32,000 nt of DNA from Methanomicrobia archaeon LH_S14 (GCA_023659775.1 JAGXOS010000005.1:1-32000); one strand, 5' to 3'; counted from the stretch's first letter, positions 3,711-28,979 are shown. The notes: generated by a model not told the origin, from the letters alone. Translations and numbers: made by a program.

Positions 3711-4856
3711 ATGCCAAAAAGAGAATATGCAAAAAGCTGTAAATCGGTGAGTGCAATAATGAGAACAGCGAAGCCAATATTGCCCCTGATAGTTATTGTC
3801 GTGTTATCGGTATCGCTGGTGAGTATGGCGATAACAGCGGCGGAAGAGGCTACACCTGACGTGACGGATTGTACGGGGTGCCATGCGGATATCGAAGATA
3901 CGGTCGCTAATTTCAATATGTCGCTGCACCATACTATCGGGGGGGTATACGGTGAGTTCGCACGAGGAGCGGGAGAGCAATTTAACATGAGTTCGCCTCC
4001 TGAAGGCTGTACTAAGTGCCATGTTGATTCGTGTGACAGTTGCCATAATGATTTCGCATCTTATCCAGGGTCGCCGGAGCACGGGAAAGCGGTAGAGATG
4101 GATACGTGCGTTGAGTGTCACCATTCGAGAGCGGGTGTGAACTATGTCGGATACCTTGGCGGTCATAAAAAGAAGGGACCAAGTGCAGACGTCCACCATC
4201 AAATGGGTTTAAACTGCACTGATTGCCACACACCTTCAGAGATACATGGCAACGGAGAAATGTATAGTAATGAAAAGGAGGCAGTGAAGGTAAGGTGTGA
4301 GGACTGCCACAACAGCCCAGGGAAAGAAGTCAAGGAAATGCCAGTAACGCAGTTCTCAACCGAGATACCGGCACACAAAATACACGAAGGAAAGCTCGAC
4401 TGCTCAGCATGCCACGCTGGATGGATGCAGACATGCTACAACTGCCATCTTGAGACCGGGAAAGCTGATAAATCGTACGTGGATGAGTTCCATCTCGGCG
4501 TTGGTTATGAAGGAGAGATAAAACCGTTCTACTACCAGCGAGTGAGCAAGGGGAATAAGTCATACGATAGATGGGTCGAATGGACACCACACACAATTTC
4601 CGCAACGGCGCACAACTGCAGTTTCTGTCATGAGAATCCGGAGCTGCTTGGTGAAAACCGAACAGGGATAGTGCTTGGACCAGAAGGTGCGAAGTTTATA
4701 CCACAAGAGATGATAGAGCGGATTTTAGCAGTAGAAGTGCCTGCGAGGACACCAGCGGAAACACCAGCAGCAACGCCTACACCACCAGGTTTCGAACTGA
4801 TATTCGCAGTGATTGCAATTGCAGTGGTTGTGCTTCTTGCAAAACGGAGACATTAG
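3711..4856 (+). CDS. nonahaem c-type cytochrome with N-terminal signal/TM and C-terminal PGF-CTERM archaeal surface-anchoring signal
   Basis: There are nine CxxCH motifs: CTGCH, CTKCH, CDSCH, CVECH, CTDCH, CEDCH, CSACH, CYNCH, CSFCH. A T/P-rich linker (TPAETPAATPTP) is followed by PGFELIFAVIAIAVVVLLAKRRH. A promoter-like CTTTTTATAC lies at about 3637 and an oligo-T terminator at 4897-4910. Confidence 0.9.
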   Translation: MPKREYAKSCKSVSAIMRTAKPILPLIVIVVLSVSLVSMAITAAEEATPDVTDCTGCHADIEDTVANFNMSLHHTIGGVYGEFARGAGEQFNMSSPPEGCTKCHVDSCDSCHNDFASYPGSPEHGKAVEMDTCVECHHSRAGVNYVGYLGGHKKKGPSADVHHQMGLNCTDCHTPSEIHGNGEMYSNEKEAVKVRCEDCHNSPGKEVKEMPVTQFSTEIPAHKIHEGKLDCSACHAGWMQTCYNCHLETGKADKSYVDEFHLGVGYEGEIKPFYYQRVSKGNKSYDRWVEWTPHTISATAHNCSFCHENPELLGENRTGIVLGPEGAKFIPQEMIERILAVEVPARTPAETPAATPTPPGFELIFAVIAIAVVVLLAKRRH

Positions 4857-4994: not shown

Positions 4995-5393
4995 GTGAAA
5001 ATGGCAACAAGAGAAGGAGATTGGTTAAGACAAGCAAAGAGAGATTTGGAGCATGCTCGGCATGCTCTTGAGGATGGAGATTATGAATGGTCCTGTTTTG
5101 CTGCTCAGCAGGCTGCGGAAAAAGCGGTGAAAGCACTTTATCAGAAACTCGGTGCTGATGCGTGGGGACATTTGGTAAGCACTCTGCTTTCCAATCTACC
5201 CGCCTCTATTTATCCAGAAGACGCATTAATAGAAAAAGCAAAGGAACTGGATATGCATTATATCCCTTCCCGTTATCCCAATTCCTATCCCTCTGGTGCA
5301 CCTTTTGAGTTTTACACCAGAGAGGGAGCAAAAAGAGTAATAGGATATGCAGAGGAAATTATCGCGTTCTGTGAGGATAAGATACTTCGATAA
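4995..5393 (+). CDS. HEPN domain protein (toxin-like partner of the following nucleotidyltransferase)
   Basis: WLRQAKRDLEHARHALEDGDY, FAAQQAAEKAVKALY and SRYPNSYP..FYTREGA match the classic HEPN layout. It overlaps the MNT gene. Confidence 0.8.
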   Translation: MKMATREGDWLRQAKRDLEHARHALEDGDYEWSCFAAQQAAEKAVKALYQKLGADAWGHLVSTLLSNLPASIYPEDALIEKAKELDMHYIPSRYPNSYPSGAPFEFYTREGAKRVIGYAEEIIAFCEDKILR

Positions 5394-5712
5394 GAAGTCG
5401 GTCGAAGAATCACTCAGGGGATATCTGAAAGAGATAGATGGAAAACACCCGGAAGTAGAGCGTGTGCTCCTCTTCGGCTCTTTTGTTCGGGACGAATGCG
5501 TGCCTGGGAGCGATATAGATTTACTCCTGATACTGAGTGCCTCAGAAGAGACCTTCTTGGAGCGAATACCACGCTTTTTGCCTTCTCGATTCCCGGTAGG
5601 GGTGGATGTATTCCCTTATACAGAGATGGAGGTGGAAAAGATGAAGGGAGGGGGGAATTTCTTTATACGAAGAGCTTTAGAAGAGGGAGTGGAGATTTTT
5701 CGAAGACGCTGA
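5347..5712 (+). CDS. minimal nucleotidyltransferase (MNT), partner of the HEPN protein
   Basis: LLFGSFVRDECVPGSDIDLLLIL is the GSxxxG...SDxDL motif. The true start may be GTG 5371. Confidence 0.8.
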   Translation: MQRKLSRSVRIRYFDKKSVEESLRGYLKEIDGKHPEVERVLLFGSFVRDECVPGSDIDLLLILSASEETFLERIPRFLPSRFPVGVDVFPYTEMEVEKMKGGGNFFIRRALEEGVEIFRRR

Positions 5713-11144: not shown

Positions 11145-11621
11145 CTACTTCGATATTGGATGGCAAATTGTGCAGGTTTCTGGTCTAACCGTTAGTCTAT
11201 GGTCATCATGGCAGATTATGCACTCATAACCACTATACTCCGGGACTTGCTCACCCATCCACGAGATATGCTCTTTATGCCCTTCTGGGTACTTCGCGCC
11301 TCCATGGCACTCCAGGCAAAAATCGCTTTTTGGAGCTTCGGGAATCTCATCTTCGATTTCTGAAGCTTCTATCCCTTTAATGTGCTCAATGCCATGCCCT
11401 ATGGGTGCTCCTTCCGGCCTATGACATTCGTGGCAATCCATCACACCAGCAGTTCCATGGGTTGAAACCTCCAGGGAGTCATAGAAGGGCTGCATCTCAT
11501 GACACATCTTACTACAACTCTCCGGTTTGTGCATATAGCTGGACATAGCTGCTCCAGCAACCGCAAGCACTATCACTGCCATAGCCAGACCAATAACAAC
11601 CATCTTTTTTGTGATTTTCAT
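11145..11621 (-). CDS. membrane-anchored NapC/NirT/CymA-like pentahaem c-type cytochrome
   Basis: It has an N-terminal TM helix. Four CxxCH motifs are present (CHECH, CLECH, CIICH, CTICH). A first site, CSKMCHEM..FYDS..STH, aligns with the NapC-family first-haem motif as I recall it (CxxCHEM...Y..S.H) but has CX3CH spacing. A promoter AAAACTTTATATAT lies about 50 nt upstream on the minus strand. Confidence 0.75.
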   Translation of the reverse strand: MKITKKMVVIGLAMAVIVLAVAGAAMSSYMHKPESCSKMCHEMQPFYDSLEVSTHGTAGVMDCHECHRPEGAPIGHGIEHIKGIEASEIEDEIPEAPKSDFCLECHGGAKYPEGHKEHISWMGEQVPEYSGYECIICHDDHRLTVRPETCTICHPISK

Positions 11622-14221: not shown

Positions 14222-14510
14222 TATCCCTCCTTTTTCTCCACATTATAGTTCTCTTTCAAGAATTTAGTTAGAATCTCGAAGACCTTATTCATGTTGTTCC
14301 TTCTCTCTTCTGCGTTCTGTTTGGTATACCCCGGGAGGGAATCCATATAGGTTCAGCTTCCCAATTAGGGTAACGAGACAACGCCCATTCTTCTTCAAGT
14401 TCTATCACGTTTTCTTCAATAATATCATAATCAGAAAAAGCCTCCAAAAGATATGCTTCTGCGATCTCGAGGACTTTATTCCGGGTATTCATACGGTTGC
14501 CACCACCCAA
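14222..14510 (-). pseudogene. short HEPN-like partner of the upstream MNT, apparently frameshifted
   Basis: The ORF reads ...EEEWALSRYPNWEAEPIWIP, then stops. The HEPN-typical tail LPGYTKQNAEERRNNMNKVFEILTKFLKENYNVEKKEG* continues in another frame after the CCCC/GGG run at 14329-14340. Confidence 0.4.
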
Positions 14511-14923
14511 TAATCTTCTCTCGGTTCTATTATTTTCGCATCTACCATGCGTTGGAATTCTTCTTTAACCGTTGCAAACGTGCCATCATCGAGTAGTGGA
14601 ATGCCGTGCTTGAGGATGTTCAGTAACAGGGGATTGAAGTTTCTCAGGGTCGTGGAAATAATGTCTGTTCCTATAATTCTTGGCGAGACCTGACCTACAG
14701 AACGATAGAGCATTTTTCGCAGCGCTATTTCACAATCTCTGCGAGCACGCCGATCTTCAAAACGCTGCTTTACTACAACTAAAATATCTATATCGGAATA
14801 CTGTGTCTCTTTCCCCGTTGCGTAAGAGCCATAAAGTACTATACTTGATAATGAATTGCCGAAAAAGCTACTTAACTCTTCCAAGATTTTTTTACTTCTT
14901 CTTCGGACAGCATTTTTATACAC
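14489..14923 (-). CDS. minimal nucleotidyltransferase (MNT)
   Basis: VLYGSYATGKETQYSDIDILVVV. Confidence 0.8.
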   Translation of the reverse strand: MYKNAVRRRSKKILEELSSFFGNSLSSIVLYGSYATGKETQYSDIDILVVVKQRFEDRRARRDCEIALRKMLYRSVGQVSPRIIGTDIISTTLRNFNPLLLNILKHGIPLLDDGTFATVKEEFQRMVDAKIIEPREDYWVVATV

Positions 14924-14967: not shown

Positions 14968-15744
14968 ATGCGCATACTAATTAATCTTCGGGCCGCGAAA
15001 AATCAGGGTTATGAAAGTCTTTACCATCATAAGTTACAGGGATTCGTTTACGGGCTGTTGAGGGATTCGGGATTTGATGGGTTGCATGATAAGGGGGGCT
15101 ACAAATTCTTTTGTTTTTCAAATATCTTTCCTATAAAGGATATTATGGGTGCAGGCGAAGCGTTCAATTTGATTATCGCATCGCCGAATGCTGCGCTTAT
15201 ATCTTCAGTAGAGGGTGCGTTAGAGAAGATTTTGGCTGATGCTGATGGAAATGGAAGGGATGCAAACATAGGAGAAATGTCATTTGAGGTAGTGGGTTTT
15301 AAGAAGCTGGAGACGAAGCTAAAGAGGAAGGATTTGAGGGTGCTCACCGCCACGTCGGTGATAATCAGGATACCGGAGAGGAATTATGAGCGATATGGGA
15401 TACCAGAGGAGGAAAGAAAAGCGAGGTATGTTTACTGGCGTCCGAAATATTCATTTGAGGCTTTTTTGAAGCAATTAAGTGAGAATTTGATAAAGAAGTT
15501 CAATGATTTTTACGGCACGAAGCTGAGAGAATACGAACTGTTCGAGCAGTTTGTGTTCAGGCGTGCAACAGCGACAAAGGTGGTTATTGACGGCAGGGAA
15601 TACGTGATGGTGGGTAGTATGTGGGAGTTCGTATGGAGTTATATGGATGAAATGCAGCGAAGAGTAATAGAGTTTGGGTTGGATGCGGGATTTGGTGAGA
15701 GGAATTCGTTGGGGTTCGGGTTTGTGAATAAAATTTCTTTCTGA
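14968..15744 (+). CDS. cas6: Cas6 crRNA endoribonuclease
   Basis: Its N-terminus is typical of Cas6 (MRILINLRA...YHHKLQGFVYGLL). The C-terminal glycine-rich loop is GFGERNSLGFGFV. Only 44 bp separate it from the divergent MNT gene, so the transcript is probably leaderless. Confidence 0.85.
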   Translation: MRILINLRAAKNQGYESLYHHKLQGFVYGLLRDSGFDGLHDKGGYKFFCFSNIFPIKDIMGAGEAFNLIIASPNAALISSVEGALEKILADADGNGRDANIGEMSFEVVGFKKLETKLKRKDLRVLTATSVIIRIPERNYERYGIPEEERKARYVYWRPKYSFEAFLKQLSENLIKKFNDFYGTKLREYELFEQFVFRRATATKVVIDGREYVMVGSMWEFVWSYMDEMQRRVIEFGLDAGFGERNSLGFGFVNKISF

Positions 15745-15834: not shown

Positions 15835-16218
15835 ATGAGAGAAGAAGTATCCAATTGGTGGAAACAAGCATTAAAGGATTTGGAAAGCGCTAAGAAGAAT
15901 CTCGAAATTGAAGAGTATTATATTGCCGCCTTCTTATCACAGCAAGCTGCTGAAAAAGCCCTAAAAGCATTATACATTCATAAAATCAAAGAGTCGCCAG
16001 GACCAACTCATTCTTTGCTATTCTTAGGGAAGCGAGTTGGGATTCTAGAGGAATTTCACACAGCGCTCAGGAAGTTGAGTCCAGATTTTGTCATTACAAG
16101 ATATCCTGATGCTGTTCATGGTCTTCCATACGAACTTTATGACGAGGAGATTTCAAGGGAAAGGTTAGAGTTAGCCGAGAAGGTGATAAAATGGGTGAAG
16201 AAAGAACTGGAGAGATAG
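15835..16218 (+). CDS. HEPN domain protein
   Basis: WWKQALKDLESAKKNLE, LSQQAAEKALKALY and ITRYPDAVHGLPYELYDEE. It is a paralogue of the 4995-5393 protein. Confidence 0.85.
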   Translation: MREEVSNWWKQALKDLESAKKNLEIEEYYIAAFLSQQAAEKALKALYIHKIKESPGPTHSLLFLGKRVGILEEFHTALRKLSPDFVITRYPDAVHGLPYELYDEEISRERLELAEKVIKWVKKELER

Positions 16219-16544
16219 AAGGATTTTTGGAGAAAGTAAGAATAAGATTCAGTCCCGAAGCAATGATATTATTTGGAAGCAGGTCAAGAGGGGAATATTT
16301 AAAACAAAGCGATTACGACTTGATAATAGTCAGCAAAAAGTTTGAAGGCATGCATTTCCTTGAGCGGATATATCAACTCTTAGAGCTTTGGGATTGTGAT
16401 GCCGATGTAGATTTGTTGCCTTATACTCCGGAAGAGTTCAAGAAGAAAAAGGAGGAGATAGGAATTGTAAAGGAGGCAGTAAAGGAAGGGGTTGAGGTAT
16501 CATTAAAGCAAAAGGATTTCATGGATAAACGTGTCAAAATATAG
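16191..16544 (+). CDS. minimal nucleotidyltransferase (MNT)
   Basis: ILFGSRSRGEYLKQSDYDLIIV. It overlaps the HEPN gene by 28 nt. Confidence 0.85.
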   Translation: MGEERTGEIEGFLEKVRIRFSPEAMILFGSRSRGEYLKQSDYDLIIVSKKFEGMHFLERIYQLLELWDCDADVDLLPYTPEEFKKKKEEIGIVKEAVKEGVEVSLKQKDFMDKRVKI

Positions 16545-16569: not shown

Positions 16570-17652
16570 ATGATAAGACGCGCGACTTTATCGCTTAACG
16601 AAGCGACAGGGGAGAAGAAGGTAGCGATAGATTTATTGATACAACAGTATCTTATCTTCCTGCAAAAGGTTATTAACACGCTCTGGAATCATAAACTCTT
16701 CTTTGGTACGTTTGTTCCCAAGAAATGGTATAAAGAGATAAAAAGCTCTTTAACAGAACGATACAAGCAATGTGCAGCAAAGCAAGCCTTAGCTATTGTT
16801 AAATCGCAGCGAAAGCGAGAGAAGAAAACAAAGCCGATTATTCATAATGCCTCTATCGAATTAGATTCACGATTCGTTACGATAGAACAAGGGAAAAACA
16901 GTTTCGACCTGTGGATAAAACTCGCTGTCTTAGGTGGGGAACCAATATATATCCCTGCAAAGTGGCATTATCACTTCAACAAGTTCTTTAATAACTCCGA
17001 TTGGACCCCGAAGAAATCATGCAGGTTGCGAAGAACGGATAAAGGATTATTCTTAGATATATTCTTTGAGAAAGAAGCGGAACAGATAAAAGAAGCGGGA
17101 GGAGCTGTTGGGCTCGACTTGGGATTTCGTAAATTAGCCGTTCTGAGCGATGGGCAAATAGTAGGTAAAGAGCTAAATAAGGAAGAGATAACCCGATTAT
17201 ATAATCGAAAAAACAGTCATTTGGTTATTTCAGAACTTATAAACCGGGAATTGAAGAAGATAGATTTTAATAATATCAAAACGCTTGTGGTCGAAGATTT
17301 AAAGAACGTAAAGAAGGGAAAGGGAAGAAAAGCAAAGCCCGGGAAAAGATTCAGTCGTTACGCTAATCGGTTGCTTGCACATTGGGCTTACCATCGTGCT
17401 CTGACCAAACTGGAGATGCTCTGTGAAGAGAACCGTGTTCAAATCGCGGGTGTGAATCCAGGAGGGACGAGTAAAGCCTGCAACAAATGTGGAAGCAAAG
17501 GGATAAGACGGGATGAAAGATTCGTATGTCCCACATGTGGAAATAAGGACGATGCCGACCATAATGCCGCATGTAACATACGAGACCGCTTTATCTCTCA
17601 GGGAGTATATGGTCCCCTGCCTGAAAACCACTTAGATGTTCCCTCTGGTTAG
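16570..17652 (+). CDS. tnpB: TnpB (IS200/IS605-family OrfB) RNA-guided nuclease-like protein; no tnpA nearby
   Basis: All three RuvC motifs are present: GLDLGFRKLAV (D), TLVVEDLKNV (E) and DADHNAACNI (D). The zinc finger is CNKCG...CPTCG. It starts 25 nt after the MNT stop. Confidence 0.85.
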   Translation: MIRRATLSLNEATGEKKVAIDLLIQQYLIFLQKVINTLWNHKLFFGTFVPKKWYKEIKSSLTERYKQCAAKQALAIVKSQRKREKKTKPIIHNASIELDSRFVTIEQGKNSFDLWIKLAVLGGEPIYIPAKWHYHFNKFFNNSDWTPKKSCRLRRTDKGLFLDIFFEKEAEQIKEAGGAVGLDLGFRKLAVLSDGQIVGKELNKEEITRLYNRKNSHLVISELINRELKKIDFNNIKTLVVEDLKNVKKGKGRKAKPGKRFSRYANRLLAHWAYHRALTKLEMLCEENRVQIAGVNPGGTSKACNKCGSKGIRRDERFVCPTCGNKDDADHNAACNIRDRFISQGVYGPLPENHLDVPSG

Positions 17653-17854: not shown

Positions 17855-19420
17855 ATGAAGAGGCTAAGGGGGAAGGGGGTTAAAATAGAAATCCCGATTT
17901 ATAATGATGTTTGGATGGATAATGGGGTTGAAACATTTTATCACATTTTGAAAGAGGCGCAGAACAATAGTTTTAATGTAAATATTAACGCTGATTCTCT
18001 GCTACTAAATGTGACTGATTTCGATAAATTCCAAGAATCTATTGGTGTTGCAGTGAAGAACAGACGCTCAAATCTCATCGTGATTGCTGAGGACAAGAAG
18101 ACTGGTGAAACGAAACAGATAAAGAAGGATTATATCCTTATCCAAGAAGGGACGAAGGTCAAAGGAGAAGTAGCGTTTAAAGAGGGATTATACAATGAAA
18201 AAACTGCCGTTGACACCGTTAAAAAAGTATTTGACTTGATTGCCGAAGAAGGGACGCGCAATTGCATTATTTGTGGGAAACAGTTTTCCAAGCCTGTGAA
18301 GAAACTCCAGCAAGCTGCCTACCCATCTGTCACAAAGATTAAAAGCCTTAGTGGGGTAAGAAGTTACAAGGATGGTGAAGTCTACTCTTTTAAAGAATAC
18401 TTTGAGGACTTTTGTCCTACTTGCTATCTAATAGGGCTCTCTGAGTGGTCTGACGATGGAATAATTTATCGCACAATCCCTGGTGAAAGGTCCACCTTGT
18501 TTTTACCCAAGCTTAACAGCTTAGAGGAGTTGGCAAAATTCAAAGAATCATATCGCCCTCTTCTAAATAAGAGTTCTCGGTATCGCAACATACGGGTTAA
18601 GGAAGGCAGCGAAGAAACAGAAAATCCATCTGGATCTTTTAGCACTTTGATTTGCTTCTATGAGAAATTTTTCTTCGGTGTTGACAGAAACGAGGTAATT
18701 AAAAAATCTTGGGTAATGATGGAAGTGCCATTCGGTGCTGTTAAGAATATCAAGCTCAGCGTTATAGACCTTGCAGAATCTACTTTGCGAGTTATCAAAG
18801 AACTTTCCAATGAGGAAATAAGCATCTATAAAGAGATAATCGAGGAGATTTTCTTCTTTTACGACAATCCGAAAGGTGCTCCTGTGGACTGGAATCTAAC
18901 CGGGGAAATTAGAGAAAAACTCTCCGAAGCTATCCTGAAAGACGATTTCCGTTCCTTTGCAAGAAACATTCTTCCGAGGAAGGGCGGCCGAGTAGGCTAC
19001 TCAAAGGATACAAGACTTAATATAGAGGAGTTAATATATATTTGGAGGTTGAAAAATATGGGGCTGAATGAAGAAAAGTTAAAGACTATTAGGTCTGCGG
19101 GTAGAACAATTGCAGCGGCTTCTAAAGACCATCGAAACCTTTTATACAATTTGGATAAAGCGAAAGATAAATCAGCTTTGTTGAATGCTTTGCGACAGGT
19201 TAGCCGGAGAATAGCAGGATTGAAAGCAGAAGAGAAAGAGAAATTTAAGGGATTTATTTACCCTCCCGCTCTAGAGGACATTGTTTCATTGTTAGAAGAG
19301 CATGACACTGATAGCAAGTTCATTGAGGACATAAAAAATATTTTGGTAGTCTTTTCCTGTGTTGAATTTTCAAGATTAGACTACTTCAGAGAAAAAAAGG
19401 AAGGTGAGGCGAATGAATGA
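17855..19420 (+). CDS. cas8b: Cas8 large subunit of the Cst1 / CXXC-CXXC type (type I-B)
   Basis: It has CIICGK...CPTC zinc-finger-like pairs. Position (cas6 ... cas8-cas7-cas5-cas3) and size (521 aa) fit. Confidence 0.7.
19058..19420 (+). CDS. cas11: candidate internally translated Cas11 small subunit (in frame within the cas8 3' end)
   Basis: In-frame ATG 19058 is preceded by GGAGGT (19044-19049) at 8-nt spacing. The 120-aa product reads as helix-rich by composition ([32 protein letters not shown]...). Confidence 0.35.
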
Positions 19421-20336
19421 ATTGAAAGGACTGAACATTGTGTGGCTTTCTGAAACAGACCTAACGAACCTGAATGCGGGAGAAGGCGAGAGCAATTACA
19501 TAGATGTGAAGAAGTTCAAGAGAGACGGTATCGAATATCCCTATGTAAGCGGGCAGGCAATGAGGTTTTACCTCAAGGAGGCGATGAGAAGGAGCTTGGA
19601 AGATAAAGAGTACATGTGCATCCCTAATGACAAGGGAGAAACCTGTGGAGATATTAAAAAATGCATCATGTGCGACCTTTTTGGGTTCATGACAACCGTC
19701 AAAGGAAAAGGTGCTGTAACGAGGGTCTCTCCCGTGAAGGTCTCGCCAGCAATCGGGATGTTACCTTTTGATGAAAATGCAGCAAGTGGCGGCGCGGATT
19801 TTCTTACAAGACGCCACAGAGTTTCAGAAGGCACAAAGATGGAGGGCGATATTGTTAACGTCGAAATTGGTACAAATATCTACAAGGGCGGAGTCTCTAT
19901 CGATATGGTGCGCGTTGGCAGCAATGAAAAAATAGACGAAGAGAGAAGAGCTGTCTCTATAGAAAATGTTGTAGACGTTTCCGAGAAAAAGAAGCGTGTG
20001 AAAAAAATGCTCGAAGCGCTTAGATATCTCACAGATTATTCAAAGCAAGCGCGGCTATTAACAGACTTTTCACCCGATGTGATTGCTATTTCGTTACAGA
20101 ACAAATATGCCCATAGACTCCAGAAACTTTTTGAACTTTATGATGGAAGAGAAGTGAATATCCAGCGGTTGAACGAGATACTGGACGACGTCTCTGACTA
20201 CAGTGATAAAATACTATTCGGTATGGTTTCGGGCATAGTTAAAAACGAAACTGAAGTGAAAAAAGCTGTTGAAGCAAAAGGTATCAGTGTAAAAACACCA
20301 AGCAAAGTGCTTAATGAGGCGATGGAGTTGGTATGA
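19413..20336 (+). CDS. cas7: Cas7 backbone subunit (Cst2/DevR type)
   Basis: [34 protein letters not shown]...[18 protein letters not shown]. The ATG overlaps the cas8 stop (ATGAATGA). The track start GTG 19404 is also possible. Confidence 0.85.
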
Positions 20337-20339
20337 TGA

Positions 20340-20996
20340 ATGTTCGGCTTCAAGTTTAGACTCGAAGGACTGTATTTCGCCACCTTTAGAAAACCGACCA
20401 CAACGAGCCTTATAATGAGTTATTCTATCCCACCCTATACTACCATCAGGGGAATGATAGCGAATGCTTTGGGGATGATGAGGGATGAGCTCTCGATTCA
20501 GGATTGGATCACGATTGGCATAAAGCCAATAACTTTTTCAAATAGATCGAGAGAGTTGACAAAGATGCTTAAACTCAAAGGTACTGGTGAAACACATCAA
20601 AGGGTTTTTCCATCCGCACCGATGTTCAAGGAATTCTTAGTTTCACCTACCTACGAGATATACATTGCGGGAGAAGATGATAAAATAAATCAGATATACA
20701 ATGCTCTCATCTATCCTGCAAGACCCCTTTACATTGGAGCTTCGGATGACCTTGTCAACATCGAACCGTCAAAACCCATCGAAATCAAAAAAAATAGCGC
20801 ACGAGAAATTTCAGGAGTAATCGAAGGAATTCACGAAAAATGCTTTATAGAAAAAATCCCTTATAAATTTAACAAAAAGGGCAATAATTTTTCGCTTGAA
20901 TATAAAACTGTGTCGATACCGAAGGATGTGATTATAACTCTGAAAGAAGAAGTTGGATGTTGGCAATTTGATGGTGAGAATATATGGCTGGCGTGA
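20340..20996 (+). CDS. cas5: Cas5 (Cas5t type)
   Basis: [41 protein letters not shown] is a typical Cas5 N-terminus. Confidence 0.8.
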
Positions 20997-21295
20997 GAAA
21001 ACCTAAAGTTAGGAAAAGAGGTCCTAAAATTACCACTCCAAAAGAAATTTGTACAATAAAAGAATTCTTGGACGATATCGGCATAAATTACGATGGCTAT
21101 ATGGAATGGAATGATGGGAGTTGCACTTTTTTGATATCAAATTTGGAGGAAGAAGAGACTACTCTATTGGAGAAAGGATTAGGGCTTAAAAGCTTAGGTT
21201 ATAGCTTATTCTACTTGGAAACTAATGAAATAAACGTAAATGAGAAACTACAATATATAAAACCCGTTTTTACGAAAGAAGAAGTGAAGAAGTAG
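20984..21295 (+). CDS. hypothetical 103-aa protein (basic N-terminus, acidic body) inside the cas operon
   Basis: The start overlaps the cas5 stop by 13 nt on the same strand. [21 protein letters not shown] is followed by an acidic region. I recognise no family. Confidence 0.45.
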
Positions 21296-21316
21296 CGTGA
21301 GACAATTAGTAAAATA

Positions 21317-21655
21317 ATGGAATTTGAAAGAAAATGTTCGAGTGAAGGGAAGAAATGTCCCTTTGAATCCTCAATCCTCCAAATCCCAATCGCTACCAAA
21401 TGGACTGGTAATATTACTACAAATCTAACAGAGTTCAAAGATTTTGTCACTGATTTAAATAGCTTCTTCATAGAAAGTCTGAAAAATAGCATAGAAGACA
21501 GGCACAAAGCGCATGATTTTTGGCAGACTATGTACGCAATTAGACACGGATATTCACACGATAAAACAAAATGGAGGGAAAAGGATAAAATGAAAATCGC
21601 TCAGAAAACAAAAGAATTTTTTTTTTCAGGAAGCCATCGGAAAAGACCAACCTAA
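21317..21655 (+). CDS. hypothetical 112-aa protein with R-x4-H (HEPN-like) motif inside the cas operon; C-terminus uncertain
   Basis: MYAIRHGYSHDK fits the Rx4-6H pattern with a polar residue after R. A T10 run lies at 21617-21626. With one T fewer the frame continues as QEAIGKDQPNTSVGFVTCQFKLLEICSDFLDLLGETNGETG* to 21749. Confidence 0.4.
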   Translation: MEFERKCSSEGKKCPFESSILQIPIATKWTGNITTNLTEFKDFVTDLNSFFIESLKNSIEDRHKAHDFWQTMYAIRHGYSHDKTKWREKDKMKIAQKTKEFFFSGSHRKRPT

Positions 21656-21726
21656 CACATCTGTCGGCTTTGTTACATGTCAATTTAAATTACTAGAAAT
21701 TTGTTCAGACTTTTTAGATCTTCTAG

Positions 21727-24312
21727 GTGAAACAAATGGAGAGACTGGCTAAACTTCAATGTACTTGTAGTAACTGTAATTTTACAGTAAGTACTTCTAT
21801 GAGGGAGTGCCCCAACTGCCGGATGCAATTAACTTGGGAAAAAAATAATAAATACTTCCAAACACTCAGAGGGCACACCATCGATGCGCTTAAAATTCTC
21901 AATGCGTACATAGAAACAAACTCTGATATAATCGAACAGTTCTGCAAGCGCTGGCGGTTGAATAAAGAATCCTTCTTGAGGTGCCTATTTATCACTGTTT
22001 ATCTCCACGACATCGGAAAATTAACCAAGCAGTTTCAAGAAAACATTGGAAATGGGAAGACTTCTCAGAGATACCCGCATGCTTTTTACGGTCAGTTTAT
22101 TTTAAACGAGATTGATTTTCCATGTTTACTTGACGCACCCATAGCACCCATAGAAAAGGCTGCAATAATGGGGCATCACACGCAGTTACACTCTCAACTA
22201 TATTCTGGATATGAAGATTTTAATAAGCCCTCATTCCTTGAAGCAGACATAAAAGCGTTTGTTAGAGACGCAAAAGACATTCACAGTGAACTCAGTTTTG
22301 ATAAGTGGTTCTCATTTGACGAGTTAAATATCAATTCATTGCCAGAATCAAGAAAATTCACTCTAACATTGCAAGGATACCGTAAAGACGTAATAAATGA
22401 GACTTCTTCATTTGAGGATAAAGAGAAGTTAAAATCGATTTTCTGTTATATTTTCTCAATCCTTGAAACCTGTGATGATTATTCAAGTGCCGAGTTTTCA
22501 CAATTTATAAAGGGCTACAACGGTAGCGATAGCGTATTTGATTCCGTTATGAAAGAGCCGACCAAATATGTCCCATGGCTCTCTATCGATAATCCGTATG
22601 AAACAATTCTGGGCGAGCATAGCCCCTATGATTACCAAAACGACAGTCCAGGAAAGCTCTGTGGCGATGTTCCATTTTACGGCTTACTTTTTGCGCCTTG
22701 CGGCAGAGGAAAGACAGAGGCAGCTCTTATCTGGGCCTTAAAAGCTATGAAAAGATACCAAAGAAATAAAATTATTTTTGCCATGCCTACCCAGATCACA
22801 AGCAATGCAATGTGGGAAAGATTTTGTGAATTGTTCGGTGATGGAGGTACAAAAGAGGAAAGAATAAAATCCGGGAAAAAGTATGTCGGGTTGTTCCATG
22901 GCAAGAGTTTCATAAAGTTGAAGGGAGAGAAAGAAAGAGAGAAAGAAAATGAAGAGGACTTAACCGATGAAGATTTGGATGAGGTCAGGGGCGAGGCTTT
23001 CAAAGGCAAGATATTCTTTAAACCAATCACTGTGACCACAATCGACCACCTGATATATTCTTTCATCCATGGATTCTCGCAGGCTGATTTTGCCCTAGGA
23101 AATCTACAGAATGCTGTTATGGTTTTCGATGAGGTACACTATTATGAAAAGCAAACTTTGGAGCACATAATGACGCTTTTAGGATTGCTTAAAGAGATGA
23201 AAATCCCCCACCTCCTTATGAGTGGCACACTACCCAAATTTTTTATTGAAAAAGTTAAAGAACTAAATAGCGAGTATCAATGCCCTTTTACGGACGACGA
23301 AGGGTTAAGGTTTGAGCCTTTTAAAATTGAACTTCTATCTAAGGAAAAGTTGGTAACGAAGGATTGGATTAACGAAAAAGTCTTAACGGAGATAGAGGAG
23401 AATTATCATAAAAGCAGGATTCAGTTCATTATATTGAATACTGTTGAAAGAAGTAAATTAATTTACGAAACTTTAATTAACCGTTTACCTCAATCAGAAG
23501 ATTCTCCAAGGATAATTCTTCATCATTCACAGTTTACCTATATAGATCGCGAAAAGAAAGAGAGAAACATTCTACATAGCCTAAAAGAAGAAGAGTTACG
23601 TCCATTTATCTTGGTGGCTACGCAAGTCATTGAGATAAGTCTTGATATATCATGTGATTTAATGTACACAGAGTTAGCGCCCGGAGATGCACTCGGACAG
23701 CGTGGCGGGAGACTCAACAGGAAAGGACGAACATGGACTTCAAATGGAGTTGAACATTTGATGAGGGTTTTTATGACGGAAGAACTCGATGACGCTGAAC
23801 CCAAAAATCGACCATACGATCCAAATCTACTTAAAAAGACGATCGGAGTTGTAAATGATATGCCTTATTCGTACATCGGGCTGAAAAATGTATGTGATGA
23901 AATATACTCTGATTATGAGTTAACTACACCGACCCCTTTGAAAAATGTATTTAACGAATGCTGCCTCTTTGGCAAATCTCCTTATGAAATAAACTTTGGT
24001 GACGAAGGAAAAGCTAGATCGATCGAAATCCGAAGTGAAAAGGTTCAGAAACTCGATGTGATACCTTGGAGTTACTATGCCAATGATGTGGGTGAACTGA
24101 AGGTCGAGAATCAAGCCAAAATCCCACTTTGGTGGTATAAACAAGATCAAAAAGAGCATGGGGGCGTGACAAGATGCTTTGAACTCGTTAATAAATCAAT
24201 TGGCTGGAAAGAAAGACCTTATTGGATCTGTAAAATACCTTATAATAAGGAGATAGGCTTCGATTATAAGCGAGTTGATGACTGCGATTTTTCTGATGAT
24301 AATATTATCTAA
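21727..24312 (+). CDS. cas3: Cas3 HD nuclease-helicase fusion with an extra N-terminal Cys4 zinc-ribbon-like motif
   Basis: The HD motif is YLHDIGK, Walker A is APCGRGKTEAAL and the DEAH-like box is FDEVHYY. The N-terminus has CTCSNC-x10-CPNC. The start is GTG 21727 or ATG 21736. Confidence 0.9.
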   Translation: MKQMERLAKLQCTCSNCNFTVSTSMRECPNCRMQLTWEKNNKYFQTLRGHTIDALKILNAYIETNSDIIEQFCKRWRLNKESFLRCLFITVYLHDIGKLTKQFQENIGNGKTSQRYPHAFYGQFILNEIDFPCLLDAPIAPIEKAAIMGHHTQLHSQLYSGYEDFNKPSFLEADIKAFVRDAKDIHSELSFDKWFSFDELNINSLPESRKFTLTLQGYRKDVINETSSFEDKEKLKSIFCYIFSILETCDDYSSAEFSQFIKGYNGSDSVFDSVMKEPTKYVPWLSIDNPYETILGEHSPYDYQNDSPGKLCGDVPFYGLLFAPCGRGKTEAALIWALKAMKRYQRNKIIFAMPTQITSNAMWERFCELFGDGGTKEERIKSGKKYVGLFHGKSFIKLKGEKEREKENEEDLTDEDLDEVRGEAFKGKIFFKPITVTTIDHLIYSFIHGFSQADFALGNLQNAVMVFDEVHYYEKQTLEHIMTLLGLLKEMKIPHLLMSGTLPKFFIEKVKELNSEYQCPFTDDEGLRFEPFKIELLSKEKLVTKDWINEKVLTEIEENYHKSRIQFIILNTVERSKLIYETLINRLPQSEDSPRIILHHSQFTYIDREKKERNILHSLKEEELRPFILVATQVIEISLDISCDLMYTELAPGDALGQRGGRLNRKGRTWTSNGVEHLMRVFMTEELDDAEPKNRPYDPNLLKKTIGVVNDMPYSYIGLKNVCDEIYSDYELTTPTPLKNVFNECCLFGKSPYEINFGDEGKARSIEIRSEKVQKLDVIPWSYYANDVGELKVENQAKIPLWWYKQDQKEHGGVTRCFELVNKSIGWKERPYWICKIPYNKEIGFDYKRVDDCDFSDDNII

Positions 24313-24474
24313 TAAAAACAACCCTCATCTCCAACTCTGCTAAGCACACTTTCATTATCCATGTGGAAATAATTTCGAAAGACAGAAGATGCATGAAAAG
24401 CTAAATGGATAAAAAGAAAATTGCAATTCACGAAAACCCTAAATATTAGTAAACCATACTGTACGAATAAAACA

Positions 24475-24870
24475 ATGATACTTCCAGACCTAAAAAAGGA
24501 TTTTGAATTCATAAGAGACGAAGTAGAAGGAGTACTCCTATTCGGCTCCGCGGTGAAAGGCAAGCTAACCACGAGGTCAGATATAGACATTGCGCTGGTC
24601 AGACCAAGCACCAGGCGCGTGCTTTTCAGGGTATTTGAACGAGTTGGCGGTAAATACGACACAAAAATATTCGAGGATTTACCACTGCACATAAAAATGG
24701 ATATTATTAAGAACCACATAATTATTTTTGGTGACGAAGTGGAACTCTCTTACTACTTTTACCGGTTCAGAAAGGAATGGAAAGATATGGAATATCGGGT
24801 TTTGAGCAACCAATTTAAAAGTGTAAAGGAAATGATAAACCAGAGGAGGGCATGGCTAAAAAATGAGTGA
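24475..24870 (+). CDS. minimal nucleotidyltransferase (MNT/MntA-like)
   Basis: LLFGSAVKGKLTTRSDIDIALV. The likely start is ATG 24475 rather than the track start 24421. Confidence 0.8.
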   Translation: MILPDLKKDFEFIRDEVEGVLLFGSAVKGKLTTRSDIDIALVRPSTRRVLFRVFERVGGKYDTKIFEDLPLHIKMDIIKNHIIIFGDEVELSYYFYRFRKEWKDMEYRVLSNQFKSVKEMINQRRAWLKNE

Positions 24871-25237
24871 AAGATACCTCAAGAAGATGGAGATACTGGA
24901 AAGGGAACTGGAATACATAAACAGCCACGAGATAACGGACGAAGTAACAGAACGAGCCGCTCTTTATTCTTTGCAGGTATGCATCGAGTCCGGAATGGAC
25001 ATCATAGCGATGAAAGTAAAAGATCTCGGATTAGTTGTAGACGATGACTACACGAACATAGAAAAATTAATCCGGGAGAGAGTTATCGCATTAAAAGAAG
25101 GAGAGCTATTGAAAGAGTTCGATGGTATCAGAAACGCAATTGTTCATAAGTACAACCAACTTGATATGGATATCATAAAGGAAGCTCTGGAAAAGATTGC
25201 CGAGTTTGCAGAAGTGATATTTAAAATTGCAGAATAA
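24863..25237 (+). CDS. DUF86/HepT-type HEPN protein
   Basis: GIRNAIVHKY is the RNxxxH(K)Y active-site motif. It overlaps the MNT gene by 8 nt. Confidence 0.85.
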   Translation: MSERYLKKMEILERELEYINSHEITDEVTERAALYSLQVCIESGMDIIAMKVKDLGLVVDDDYTNIEKLIRERVIALKEGELLKEFDGIRNAIVHKYNQLDMDIIKEALEKIAEFAEVIFKIAE

Positions 25238-25244
25238 ATAAGAA

Positions 25245-25463
25245 ATGGATGTTGAAACCGACACCGGCGCACTATTGAGCAAAGAAATGTTCGTCAGCGG
25301 CACGCAAGTGAACTATTTTATAATATGCAAGACGAAATTATGGCTGTTCTCGCATTTCGTTACCATGGAACAGAGTTCCGACCTCGTCTCGTATGGCAAA
25401 CTCGTGCACGAAACGTCATACGGCGAAAAGAAGAAGGAAATTGTTATTGACGACCGAATATAG
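25245..25463 (+). pseudogene. cas4: Cas4 N-terminal fragment (~72 aa)
   Basis: VSGTQVNYFIICKTKLWLFSHFVTMEQSSDLVSYGKLVHETSY matches the Cas4 N-terminal region. The RecB-nuclease core and C-terminal Cys cluster are missing. It stops at 25461-25463. Confidence 0.65.
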
Positions 25464-25750
25464 CAGAGATTTTCAAGCCGTTTCTTGTTGACCGTGTGAT
25501 ATTCAAGCTGGTGAATAAGAATATGCTCAGCGATGCGGATTTTGTGCAAGAGCTAAAGTCATGTCTGCTGAACGATAAAGGGCGGCGGATATTTCTCGCG
25601 GAATGGGATGCTAAGTTGAAGACGACGATAAAGCATCGCGAGTTGAAACGAAACGTTTCTTATCAGAGGTTGATTCGGCTGGAGTGCTATAAGCTGACGA
25701 AGCATTTACTGGGCACGAAACCGTATAAGCCGTTTGTGATGTGGTGGTAA
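25451..25750 (+). pseudogene. cas1: Cas1 C-terminal fragment (~95 aa), catalytic core deleted
   Basis: [22 protein letters not shown]...[13 protein letters not shown]...[27 protein letters not shown] is the Cas1 C-terminal helical tail. The frame opens only at 25451, directly at the cas4 fragment end. Confidence 0.7.
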
Positions 25751-25778: not shown

Positions 25779-25811
25779 ATTAAAAAACCGCTTCGCTGTT
25801 TGCTTCGCAAA

Positions 25812-26075
25812 ATGTATGTAATAATCGTGTACGACATGAATGTGGAAAGAGTAGCGAAGATATGCCAGTATCTCCGCAGGTATCTGGATTGGGTGCAGAA
25901 TTCGGTATTTGAAGGTGAACTCACGGATTCGCAGTTCAAAAGGATAAAGCACGATTTAAAGGAGCTAATGCACGAGGATGAAGATTCCGTGCGGTTTTAC
26001 ACTTTCAGGACAAAAGAGCAGGTGAAGATCGAGACGATGGGCATTCTGAAGGCGGATATAGAGTGCATAATTTAA
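25812..26075 (+). CDS. cas2: Cas2
   Basis: MYVIIVYDM...RVAKICQYLRRYLDWVQNSVFEGELT...DSVRFY is the Cas2 ferredoxin-fold signature. Confidence 0.85.
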   Translation: MYVIIVYDMNVERVAKICQYLRRYLDWVQNSVFEGELTDSQFKRIKHDLKELMHEDEDSVRFYTFRTKEQVKIETMGILKADIECII

Positions 26076-26088
26076 TTGACATGGCGAT

Positions 26089-26123
26089 AATGCAAAATGC
26101 AAAATGCAAAATGCAAAATGCAA
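26089..26123 (+). repeat. perfect tandem heptamer (AATGCAA)x5 at the start of the CRISPR leader
   Basis: Read directly from the sequence. It begins 14 nt after the cas2 stop. Confidence 0.9.
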
Positions 26124-26195
26124 AATGCAAACTGTAAAATTCCGAAACAAATTATACTCATGTAAAAAGGAACGGTTTTACAGTAGTTGTGGATC

Positions 26196-26294: not shown

Positions 26295-28979
26295 GTTAAA
26301 CACGGACTAAGATAGGATTGAAACACAAATCATGGATATGTATCATAGAGGCATAATAGATTGTTAAACACGGACTAAGATAGGATTGAAACATCATAGA
26401 AACTATCATAATCAATTATACCGCGGTGTTAAACACGGACTAAGGTAGGATTGAAACAAAAGTAACACCCGACAGCGACAAAGCGATAAAGCGAGTTAAA
26501 CACGGACTAAGGTAGGATTGAAACGCAACTCCTTCGGTATTATATTTCCTTCCATTTTTCTTTGTTAAACACGGACTAAGGTAGGATTGAAACTGTAGAC
26601 GGTATGAACGAAGCGGAAGACCCTATAGAGTTAAACACGGACTAAGGTAGGATTGAAACGAAATATCGTAAACATAGGGAAGGGAAAGATAGAGAGTTAA
26701 ACACGGACTAAGGTAGGATTGAAACATACGATAGTAATAGTATAATCCCTCAGGTAAATCTTGTTAAACACGGACTAAGGTAGGATTGAAACTTTAAGCA
26801 AACTATCAGTATCAAACTGCAAATTGAGGTTAAACACGGACTAAGGTAGGATTGAAACAGATTTATAAGGTATGTAACACATTCCTCCTTCGTTATCGTT
26901 AAACACGGACTAAGGTAGGATTGAAACAATTGACATTAGCTTGTCAGTGTAGTTTTTTACCGTGTTAAACACGGACTAAGGTAGGATTGAAACTACTGGT
27001 ATGAATACTGGTGGGACAGGGACGCAGGGTTAAACACGGACTAAGGTAGGATTGAAACGTTACAGCATCATTTACTATTTTAGCTGTTGTTACAGTTAAA
27101 CACGGACTAAGGTAGGATTGAAACCAAAATACAGGGACACACCGATATCATGTAACTCAAGTTAAACACGGACTAAGGTAGGATTGAAACCTCGCTATAA
27201 TTACCCTCTATCAGTTTGCTGTATGGGGTTAAACACGGACTAAGGTAGGATTGAAACAAAATAAAAAGCTTTTTCCAGTAAGAAGCCCCTAAGTTAAACA
27301 CGGACTAAGATAGGATTGAAACGAGCGAACCCAACTTTCTCTAACGTTTCTGTTACCTCGTTAAACACGGACTAAGATAGGATTGAAACGTTCTTTTCTC
27401 TCTATTTGCTCGTATCGCTAGTGCGTTAAACACGGACTAAGATAGGATTGAAACAATTGGAGCAATAGCAATAATGCTAACATTTAGGGAGGGTTAAACA
27501 CGGACTAAGATAGGATTGAAACTTAAATATATCACTCTTTTCTATTGGTATGTCCTCAGTTAAACACGGACTAAGATAGGATTGAAACATAGTATGCTTG
27601 AGGTGTTTTTCCTTCATGAGGTATAGTTAAACACGGACTAAGATAGGATTGAAACTCTTGTATTAGTATATCGTACATGTCCTGAGCATGGTTAAACACG
27701 GACTAAGATAGGATTGAAACCAAAATACAGGGACACACCGATATCATGTAACTCAAGTTAAACACGGACTAAGATAGGATTGAAACATAGGATATGCTAA
27801 CACACCATTTTTTGTTACATAGTTAAACACGGACTAAGATAGGATTGAAACAAATACATATATAGATACATGGTTTGATGAACGTAGTTAAACACGGACT
27901 AAGATAGGATTGAAACGAAGCACCACCGGGTGATTATACTATAACACCACCAGTTAAACACGGACTAAGATAGGATTGAAACATAATCTGCGTTGGATTC
28001 CCTTCTGCATCCCGTTCCAGGTTAAACACGGACTAAGATAGGATTGAAACTTTGTGTTTGAATCGGGACATACGTACAGTTTTCATGGTTAAACACGGAC
28101 TAAGATAGGATTGAAACAATTTTAATCTCGTAGGTTTCAAGGGGAAATAAATTGTTAAACACGGACTAAGATAGGATTGAAACTATTTAGAACGTATCGG
28201 CTCCGCTACATTCTCGTAGAGTTAAACACGGACTAAGATAGGATTGAAACTTTGCTTCGAGATAGCGTCCATACTCACCCAATCCGGTTAAACACGGACT
28301 AAGATAGGATTGAAACATATAATATCAAAATTCGAATTGAAAGCGGATTTCGGTTAAACACGGACTAAGGTAGGATTGAAACGGAATACATGTTAGAGTT
28401 TCAAAGGCTGCTTGAGGAGTTAAACACGGACTAAGGTAGGATTGAAACATGACACGTGAAGGGATTGAGATAAAATGTGCTTATGTTAAACACGGACTAA
28501 GGTAGGATTGAAACTCTCATATCACCTCCATTTCTGTTCGGTAGGTATTAGTTAAACACGGACTAAGGTAGGATTGAAACTATTCGTAGCTCTACTACCG
28601 TCCATCTCAAACCCTCGTTAAACACGGACTAAGGTAGGATTGAAACGGCGATTAACGGTTTAGGGCACTTTAGAGCGACGAAGTTAAACACGGACTAAGG
28701 TAGGATTGAAACTATTCATTGTATCTCCACACTCTGTCACTGCTGAATCGTTAAACACGGACTAAGGTAGGATTGAAACAAAAGCTTTTATGCGGTTTTT
28801 GTATAACATATATTTAGTTAAACACGGACTAAGGTAGGATTGAAACTAAAGCTCCCGCTGGAGAAGAGAAGAAAAGACTAATAGTTAAACACGGACTAAG
28901 GTAGGATTGAAACAGCATATATCAATCCGTTGCAGACAGAGATGTAACGGTTAAACACGGACTAAGGTAGGATTGAAAT
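26295..28979 (+). CRISPR. CRISPR array, 41 repeats x 30 bp, 40 spacers of 35-39 bp
   Basis: The repeat is GTTAAACACGGACTAAG[A/G]TAGGATTGAAAC. Its 3' end ATTGAAAC is the typical 8-nt crRNA 5' handle, so the transcript is on the + strand with the leader on the cas2 side. The last repeat ends GAAAT (degenerate). Repeats 1-2 and 16-31 carry A at position 18; repeats 3-15 and 32-41 carry G. Confidence 0.97.

Follow-up and report, generated by a model that had tools for sequence, protein, structure and literature searches.

The window analyzed here is a stretch of 32,000 nucleotides from Methanomicrobia archaeon LH_S14 (GCA_023659775.1, JAGXOS010000005.1:1-32000), and the subject of this report is a broken gene between cas5 and cas3 of its type I-B CRISPR-Cas locus. 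Coordinates refer to the whole window, and all of its CRISPR-Cas genes described here lie on the plus strand. The type I-B cas5 gene occupies positions 20340 to 20996 (Pfam Cas_Cas5d, E = 5e-12); its matches to the NCBIfam models cas_Cas5t and cas_Cas5h were below the model cut-offs. The cas3 gene, encoding an HD nuclease and helicase, extends from 21727 to 24312 and is apparently intact (NCBIfam cas3_core, E = 4e-92; cas3_HD, E = 1e-17), with an alternative ATG start at 21736. Two open reading frames were found in the interval between them, ORF1 (20984 to 21295, 103 amino acids) and ORF2 (21317 to 21655, 112 amino acids). Their lengths and placement agree with those given in an earlier reading of the window that was made from the nucleotide sequence alone (the sequence-only reading) and that regarded them as two uncharacterized genes. 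In the following, X denotes the single reconstructed gene (20984 to 21752) that spans ORF1, ORF2 and a frameshifted tail, with a reconstructed product of ~255 amino acids. The start of X overlaps the cas5 stop by 13 nucleotides. This overlap had been noted before and had been taken as a sign of translational coupling; the overlap is real, and it belongs to one gene.

ORF1 and ORF2 share one reading frame, because their starts are 333 nucleotides apart (21317 - 20984 = 3 x 111), and they are separated by a TAG codon at 21293 to 21295 followed by seven sense codons. A database search with the frame-repaired ORF2 returned 12 proteins with E values of 1e-29 to 1e-68, most of them 234-250 amino acids long. 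Since homologues match at E = 1e-48 to 1e-68, the ORFs are true coding sequence and not chance open frames. A search with ORF1 alone returned ORF1 itself and nothing else, which the searches with ORF2 and with alignments identified as a sensitivity limit of the word index. All 13 intact close homologues (P0001, P0004-P0011 and P0014-P0017; 234-255 amino acids) are single proteins that extend across both ORFs and the tail. Their N termini resemble ORF1 (e.g. MAGVRKSKVRKK...EICTFKEFL...GSCTFLI...NVNEKL), they then run through ORF2, and their C termini correspond to the frame-repaired tail (...FFQDAIGK.QPNTSVGFVTCQFKLLE.CSDFLD). ORF1 aligns to residues 1-102 of the homologue P0004. At the position of the ORF2 ATG, homologues carry Ile, Leu or Gln.

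Two lesions distinguish the window copy from these homologues. The TAG codon at 21293 to 21295 falls on the site of a conserved tryptophan, through which homologues read without a break and which is encoded by TGG in the DNA alignment with loci L001 and L002. This tryptophan is invariant in the close family and conserved in at least 90% of 39 aligned members. The second lesion is a run of ten T at 21617 to 21626, where the homologues have six (alignment columns 660-670); the four inserted nucleotides cause a +1 frame shift in a region that reads EFFQD in the protein alignment of all homologues. The frameshifted segment from 21627 to 21752 would encode the last two helices of the protein. Removal of one T from the run yielded a 41-residue extension that ends at TAA 21750 to 21752, inside the start region of cas3. 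The sequence-only reading had suspected a frameshift at this run from the protein-like character of the extension. That suspicion was essentially right, and the run and a protein-like extension were found, whereas the supposed expansion from nine T to ten did not hold, given the T6 of the homologues. Small insertions or deletions at the 3' end of the window copy have eliminated the ancestral stop; in L002 that stop overlaps the ATG of cas3.

Because the homologues are single proteins with TGG and T6 at the two sites, X is best described as one gene of ~255 codons with a nonsense mutation and a frameshift, and ORF1 and ORF2 are almost certainly its two pieces. Judged from its coding sequence, the window copy is a dead pseudogene. 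By comparison with the structure model of P0004 (see below), ORF1 would yield the disordered, basic N terminus and the small alpha/beta domain, and would break off halfway along the long connecting helix. ORF2 would provide a central piece of the helical domain at the C terminus, would then run out of frame, and would lack the last two helices.

The X family is small. A word-indexed search of 5.8 billion clusters gave 17 proteins, and an exhaustive profile search of 1.84 billion representatives gave 36 clusters, with nearly all members ~240 amino acids long. No model in Pfam, NCBIfam or PADLOC qualified for the family, nor for ORF1, ORF2 or the repaired ORF2, which is in line with the earlier statement that neither ORF could be placed in a named Cas family, and members that carry a name in any source are always called "hypothetical protein." Genomic context was usable for 12 distinct loci, the window (L014) included. 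In all 12, X lies in a type I-B effector operon, and in 10 of them, again counting the window, the gene order is cas5-X-cas3. Besides the window, this order was found in three metagenomic loci (L001, L002 and L007), in metagenome-assembled genomes (MAGs) labeled Candidatus Methanoperedens (L005), Aenigmarchaeota (L006) and Woesearchaeota (L013), in two complete genomes of Methanobacterium formicicum (L009/L010), and in L011 and L017. The host labels thus include DPANN-labeled MAGs besides Methanoperedens and M. formicicum, and the M. formicicum proteins share just 30% identity with the Methanoperedens copy. In the most divergent subfamily (L012), X has moved upstream, giving the order X-cas8b-cas7-cas5-cas3. 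The most divergent homologue, on an Atribacteria-labeled MAG contig (L016, 1 to 3076), is located between cas5 and a cas3-like helicase gene, on the opposite strand. An overlap of 4 or 13 nucleotides between the start of X and the cas5 stop is usual, and the stop of X abuts or overlaps the cas3 start. Intact homologues are under purifying selection, with ratios of nonsynonymous to synonymous substitution rates (dN/dS) of 0.12-0.19 at synonymous divergence (dS) near saturation. Since the linkage persists through sequence divergence and a change of position, X appears to be functionally tied to the effector module, and it is very probably a conserved component of a variant type I-B operon cas6-cas8b-cas7-cas5-X-cas3. 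Conservation next to cas5 and cas3 in other genomes, proposed earlier as a check, was observed for X as a single gene. In one further protein, P0053 (L015, 2539 to 3798, 419 amino acids), a Y1 transposase domain of the IS200 type (Pfam, E = 1e-6) is fused to a C-terminal region that resembles the R..H helical domain of X; its match to the X profile was borderline (E = 2e-4), and no cas genes are present on its 4.3-kb contig.

The architecture of X was modeled with AlphaFold2. The first model, of the intact Methanoperedens homologue P0004, was based on an alignment of 16 sequences and reached a predicted local distance difference test score (pLDDT) of 84.7 and a predicted template modeling score (pTM) of 0.79. 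The second model, of the C-terminal domain of P0002, was based on 41 sequences (pLDDT 92.9, pTM 0.88). In the P0004 model, the basic tail at residues 1-16 is disordered (pLDDT < 50) and occurs only in the Methanoperedens-like subfamily; the strands and helices of a small alpha/beta domain follow at residues 22-83, a long helix (84-120) makes the connection, and a helical domain spans residues 130-246. Conservation was scored in an alignment of 39 sequences reaching down to ~20% identity. The only invariant residue is the histidine of a motif R-[N/H/D]-x3-5-H. The motif arginine, five to seven residues upstream (spacing x4-x6), is conserved in at least 90% of members, and the residue following it is N, H or D in most of them and T or I in a few; examples are LRHGYSHD, LRNYYAHD, LRDFYFHD and IRNIVAHD. 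In the window, the motif corresponds to the R-H-G-Y-S-H codons at 21542 to 21559, in the ORF2 segment MYAIRHGYSHDK that had been singled out before as fitting the catalytic pattern of HEPN ribonucleases (RNases). The R-x4-H pattern has turned out to be the defining conserved motif of the family, and it is set in HEPN-like sequence and secondary-structure surroundings.

In HEPN domains, the catalytic motif occupies the end of core helix 3 together with the first part of the loop leading to helix 4. Its signature is R-x4-6-H with a polar residue (N, D or H) after the arginine, and helix 2 carries a conserved acidic residue, typically in the form E-x3-[KR], with a variable insert between helices 2 and 3 (PMC3710099). 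The R-x4-6-H signature with its polar neighbor is present in the X family as aligned in 39 sequences. In both models the secondary structure assigns the motif arginine to the final part of a helix and the histidine to the first part of the loop that comes next. In P0004, R186 lies in helix 177-189 and H191 in the loop 190-197, followed by helix 198-216; in the P0002 domain, R98 lies in helix 89-100 and H103 in the loop, and the next helix comprises residues 110-128. An acidic residue, E163 in helix 147-165 of P0004, is kept in at least 70% of members, and the helix is followed by an insert of variable length (alignment columns ~209-225). Several family members also matched Pfam HEPN models below threshold. 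HEPN_Apea was matched by P0011 (E = 0.0013), P0026 (E = 0.056) and P0034 (E = 0.18), with a best score of 19.6 bits against a cut-off of 24.4; HEPN_RiboL-PSP was matched by P0033 (E = 0.012), Ribonuc_2-5A (the KEN domain) by the family consensus (E = 0.0055) and Abi_C by P0039 (E = 0.2). The last two families are counted in the HEPN superfamily (cf. Table 1 of PMC3710099). Every one of these matches spans the R..H motif, and the three HEPN_Apea matches set the motif histidine on one profile column (~95-96). As similarities at the level of sequence profiles they are suggestive and fall short of establishing family membership.

A number of results weigh against the assignment to HEPN. No HEPN model reached its curated Pfam cut-off for X, and the acidic motif has the form E-x2-K and not the usual E-x3-[KR]. 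Profile searches against the sequences of the PDB with the 16- and 39-sequence alignments gave nothing meaningful. Foldseek searches of the PDB returned generic helical bundles only, both for the full-length model (best E = 0.31) and for the C-terminal domain (best E = 1.4), and a HEPN structure was not found among the 50 matches listed for each model; the HEPN four-helix fold that had been anticipated from the motif was thus not recovered in this way. Against the PDB and BFVD, the full-length model gave a weak MotA-like match for the N-terminal domain and otherwise generic helical bundles. Comparison of the X family with the window's own HEPN and HepT proteins by hhalign was likewise insignificant; the best HepT alignment set motif on motif, a trivial outcome. 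On balance, the motif, its placement in the predicted models and the profile matches make it probable, with moderate confidence, that the C-terminal domain of X is an HEPN-type RNase domain of the HEPN superfamily. With a similar degree of confidence, the best overall explanation of the ORFs in the window is a recently inactivated copy of a family of ~240-residue, HEPN-like components of type I-B operons.

Like the type III HEPN RNases Csm6 and Csx1, X is a CRISPR-locus protein whose N-terminal part is an alpha/beta domain and whose helical C-terminal domain carries R-x4-6-H, and by analogy it may share their presumed logic of adding RNA cleavage to the main effector. Unlike them, X is encoded in a type I-B operon, its N-terminal domain is small (~60 amino acids) and gave no CARF match, its locus has neither Cas10 nor another source of cyclic oligoadenylate, and its gene, flanked by cas5 and cas3, is internal to the effector operon and not peripheral. 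No match to Csm6 or Csx1 was obtained at the level of sequence (Pfam, NCBIfam) or by Foldseek. The proposed activity would also resemble that of Cas13 (type VI), by analogy and not by family membership. With the ApeA-type (PF18739), RiboL-PSP, KEN/RNase L and AbiJ domains, which gave the best sub-threshold profile matches aligned across R..H, and with the defense HEPN RNases in general, X shares the polar residue after the arginine and a motif at the end of one helix and the start of the next loop. However, its scores are below the curated cut-offs, it lacks the beta-rich N-terminal domain of ~300 amino acids that ApeA has, and it differs from this group as a whole in residing in a cas operon, whereas theirs are restriction-modification or stand-alone defense loci. 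HEPN-MNT (HepT/MntA) pairs, of which the window holds three, also possess an HEPN-type motif and are frequent in archaeal cas neighborhoods. X, in contrast, is twice as large, is not accompanied by a neighboring nucleotidyltransferase gene and matched neither PF05168 nor PF01934, while the true HEPN/HepT genes of the window matched at E = 1e-17 to 1e-36. An identity as an HD nuclease (Cas3'') was considered and rejected; a single H-D dipeptide is conserved in X, and Cas3 already has an HD domain.

For the role of intact X proteins we propose the following mechanism. X would consist of a small N-terminal alpha/beta domain and a C-terminal divergent, metal-independent RNase domain of the HEPN type. 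Its production would be coordinated with that of the Cascade subunits and of Cas3, and it would act at the interference stage. Upon target engagement it would add RNA cleavage to a DNA-degrading type I system, directed either at target transcripts or at RNA in a collateral, growth-arresting manner, and the N-terminal domain would dock X to Cascade or Cas3 or would restrain or gate it through one of them. The copy in the window, with its truncated product, would be unable to play this role. The interference-coupled RNase role, suggested by gene order alone, is put forward tentatively. A more specific proposal, that X is a catalytically active HEPN RNase and an integral, stoichiometric partner of type I-B Cascade-Cas3, so that a DNA-targeting type I system would independently have gained a target-activated RNA-cleaving arm (collateral or for abortive infection) comparable to those of types III and VI, is possible and should at present be regarded as doubtful.

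An alternative is that X is a non-catalytic structural or adaptor subunit, either a divergent Cas11-like small subunit or a factor for the recruitment or regulation of Cas3, in which the conserved arginine and histidine bind nucleic acid or a partner instead of cleaving. X resembles Cas11 proteins (Csa5, Cse2, Cas11b) in being helical and encoded within type I effector operons; like Cascade subunits, its gene has overlapping or abutting starts and stops. The AlphaFold2 models show an all-helical C-terminal domain, and Foldseek gave no fold-level HEPN match. In addition, profiles often fail to detect large and small subunits that evolve fast (bioRxiv 10.1101/270033). However, the conservation that extends across the whole family is limited to an arginine and a histidine with catalytic HEPN spacing and a polar neighbor, and structural subunits rarely retain only such a pair. 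With ~240 amino acids and an extra alpha/beta domain, X exceeds a typical Cas11; its gene position differs as well, and no match to Cas11, Csa5 or Cse2 was found in Pfam, NCBIfam, PDB sequences or Foldseek searches. We consider this alternative unlikely.

X could instead be an HEPN-type RNase of CRISPR RNA (crRNA) biogenesis, for example one that trims the 3' handle after cleavage by Cas6. All HEPN-like evidence for the favored explanation applies equally to this one. The 3' ends of mature type I-B crRNAs are trimmed by an unidentified nuclease, and cas6 was seen in six of the loci (the window, L006, L009/L010, L011 and L017). Yet X is missing from the large majority of type I-B systems, as indicated by 36 clusters among 1.84 billion, and the crRNAs of these systems nevertheless mature. 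The position of X beside cas3, and not beside cas6, points to the interference stage. A function in crRNA processing is therefore improbable.

Could X still be functional in the window? This would be the case if the lesions were artifacts, or if the TAG were read through (e.g. as pyrrolysine) and the T10 run were corrected by transcriptional slippage. The amino acid sequence is otherwise well kept, slippage is known to occur at long runs of T or A, and the closest named relatives are Methanoperedens, a member of the Methanosarcinales. However, an independent Logan assembly of SRR14170923 was 100% identical to the window over 6339 nucleotides, both lesions included, and the lesions, a substitution and a four-base insertion, are unlike the single-base homopolymer errors usual in sequencing. 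In the window, 5 of the 26 confident genes end in TAG; dedicated sense reading of TAG is therefore unlikely, and pyrrolysine read-through at 21293 to 21295 was rejected. Furthermore, one gene would need two independent rescue mechanisms, and the adjoining cas4 and cas1 genes have been destroyed as well. A functional copy in the window is accordingly very improbable. Two separate small genes, be they partners of a toxin-antitoxin system, regulatory genes or genes coupled in translation, as first suggested by the two ATG-initiated ORFs and the overlap of ORF1 with the cas5 stop, can be dismissed with near certainty in view of the shared frame, the single-protein form of all 13 full-length close homologues and of more distant full-length members, the tryptophan codon through which homologues read, the Ile, Leu or Gln at the supposed ORF2 start and the out-of-frame junk at the ORF2 end.

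The inactivation of X, a member of the HEPN-like family as favored here, looks recent from its sequence, because few invariant positions have changed and the substitution ratios resemble those of intact copies. The window copy departs from otherwise invariant alignment columns at 2 of 47 positions, namely the stop codon and a Thr-to-Lys exchange two residues past the catalytic-type histidine. Values of dN/dS were 0.15-0.20 in pairs with the window copy compared with 0.12-0.19 among intact copies; with dS near saturation, these values are indicative only. Thus, neither the invariant-column nor the dN/dS comparison gave any sign of a raised substitution rate in the window X.

The loss of X is part of a wider erosion of the locus. 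Of the adaptation genes, cas2 is whole (25800 to 26075; Pfam CRISPR_Cas2, E = 1e-22), whereas cas4 and cas1 are stumps. The cas4 remnant (25245 to 25463) comprises the first third only and covers positions 1-52 of the 160 in the Pfam profile Cas_Cas4. Of cas1 (25496 to 25750), only the last ~38 residues are left, at positions 245-282 of the 283 in the profile Cas_Cas1. Most of the adaptation module was lost to a deletion, and the array and the effector genes except X look intact. The CRISPR-Cas locus of the window is therefore an eroding one, with X broken and most of cas4 and cas1 gone. A second case of X decaying with its locus was seen in L001, where the X homologue (2204 to 2923) has its own 2-nucleotide deletion that leads to a premature TAA and the loss of the last ~22 residues; the cas1 call in L001 comprises only 190 amino acids.

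Type I CRISPR systems are viewed as degrading DNA only, and HEPN RNases are the hallmark of types III and VI. In the literature searched, which included the 2025 CRISPR-Cas classification and a survey of CRISPR-linked genes, no description of an HEPN-like gene inside type I-B effector operons was found; as the search was itself incomplete, this is weak evidence of novelty. No type I system with a target-activated RNA-cleaving arm was described in the same literature. The X-bearing loci are best seen as a type I-B subvariant with an extra component, probably of the HEPN type. If this is true, such operons in Methanoperedens, Methanobacterium and several uncultured lineages would amount to a new I-B variant and would speak for an addition of RNA cleavage to type I immunity. 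The cultured M. formicicum carries the family (WP_048085285), which makes it open to direct tests; an intact copy from Methanoperedens is MCZ7359179. For the window, the annotation changes from two ORFs to one pseudogene in a decaying CRISPR-Cas locus; with its own copy a pseudogene, the main interest lies in the family that it uncovered.

The remaining effector genes support the type I-B assignment of the window, where cas6, cas8b (by position only), cas7, cas5 and cas3 were found beside a CRISPR array. cas6 lies at 14968 to 15744 (TIGR01877, E = 8.5e-23) and cas7, of the Cst2/DevR type, at 19404 to 20336 (TIGR02585, E = 4e-44). The gene at 17855 to 19420 probably encodes the large subunit Cas8b; it is assigned by position only and matches no family model, and in all related loci this position is taken by a gene of 500-530 amino acids that is likewise without family matches. 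At the N terminus of Cas3 (21727 to 21830), the HD domain is preceded by a segment resembling a zinc ribbon, with the pattern CxxC...CxxC (CTCSNCNFTVSTSMRECPNC). Between cas6 and cas8b, an HEPN/nucleotidyltransferase pair (15835 to 16544) and a gene for a TnpB-like RNA-guided nuclease (16570 to 17652; NCBIfam guided_TnpB, E = 1e-29) are inserted, and a nucleotidyltransferase/HepT pair (24421 to 25237) separates cas3 from the cas4 stump. A further HEPN/nucleotidyltransferase-type pair is located at 4995 to 5712 and a lone nucleotidyltransferase gene at 14489 to 14923 on the minus strand.

The CRISPR array (26295 to 28979, plus strand) consists of 41 repeats of GTTAAACACGGACTAAG[A/G]TAGGATTGAAAC with spacers of 35-39 nucleotides. 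The two repeat variants, with A or G at repeat position 18, occur in blocks (AA, 13 G, 16 A, 10 G), the final repeat is degenerate (...GAAAT), and one spacer is exactly duplicated (27125 to 27160 and 27721 to 27756). The blocks and the duplicate spacer suggest recombination or block duplication inside the array. Directly 3' of cas2, in the presumed leader ahead of the array, a tandem heptamer AATGCAA is present in 7.4 copies (26089 to 26140).

Near the start of the window, heterodisulfide-reductase-like genes (357 to 2439) are fragmented in appearance. Two CCG-domain pieces (357 to 767 and 709 to 996) lie in different frames, the second without the first ~36 profile positions; a piece with a flavin adenine dinucleotide-binding domain (813 to 1247) is in the third frame and is followed by a ferredoxin-domain piece (1318 to 2439). 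These fragments may reflect more gene decay or a misassembly of the contig. Genes for multi-haem c-type cytochromes, which along with the origin of the closest X homologues in Candidatus Methanoperedens suggest a Methanoperedens-like archaeon as the source of the window, were found at 3711 to 4856 and 11145 to 11621, one of them with a PGF-CTERM archaeal sorting signal.

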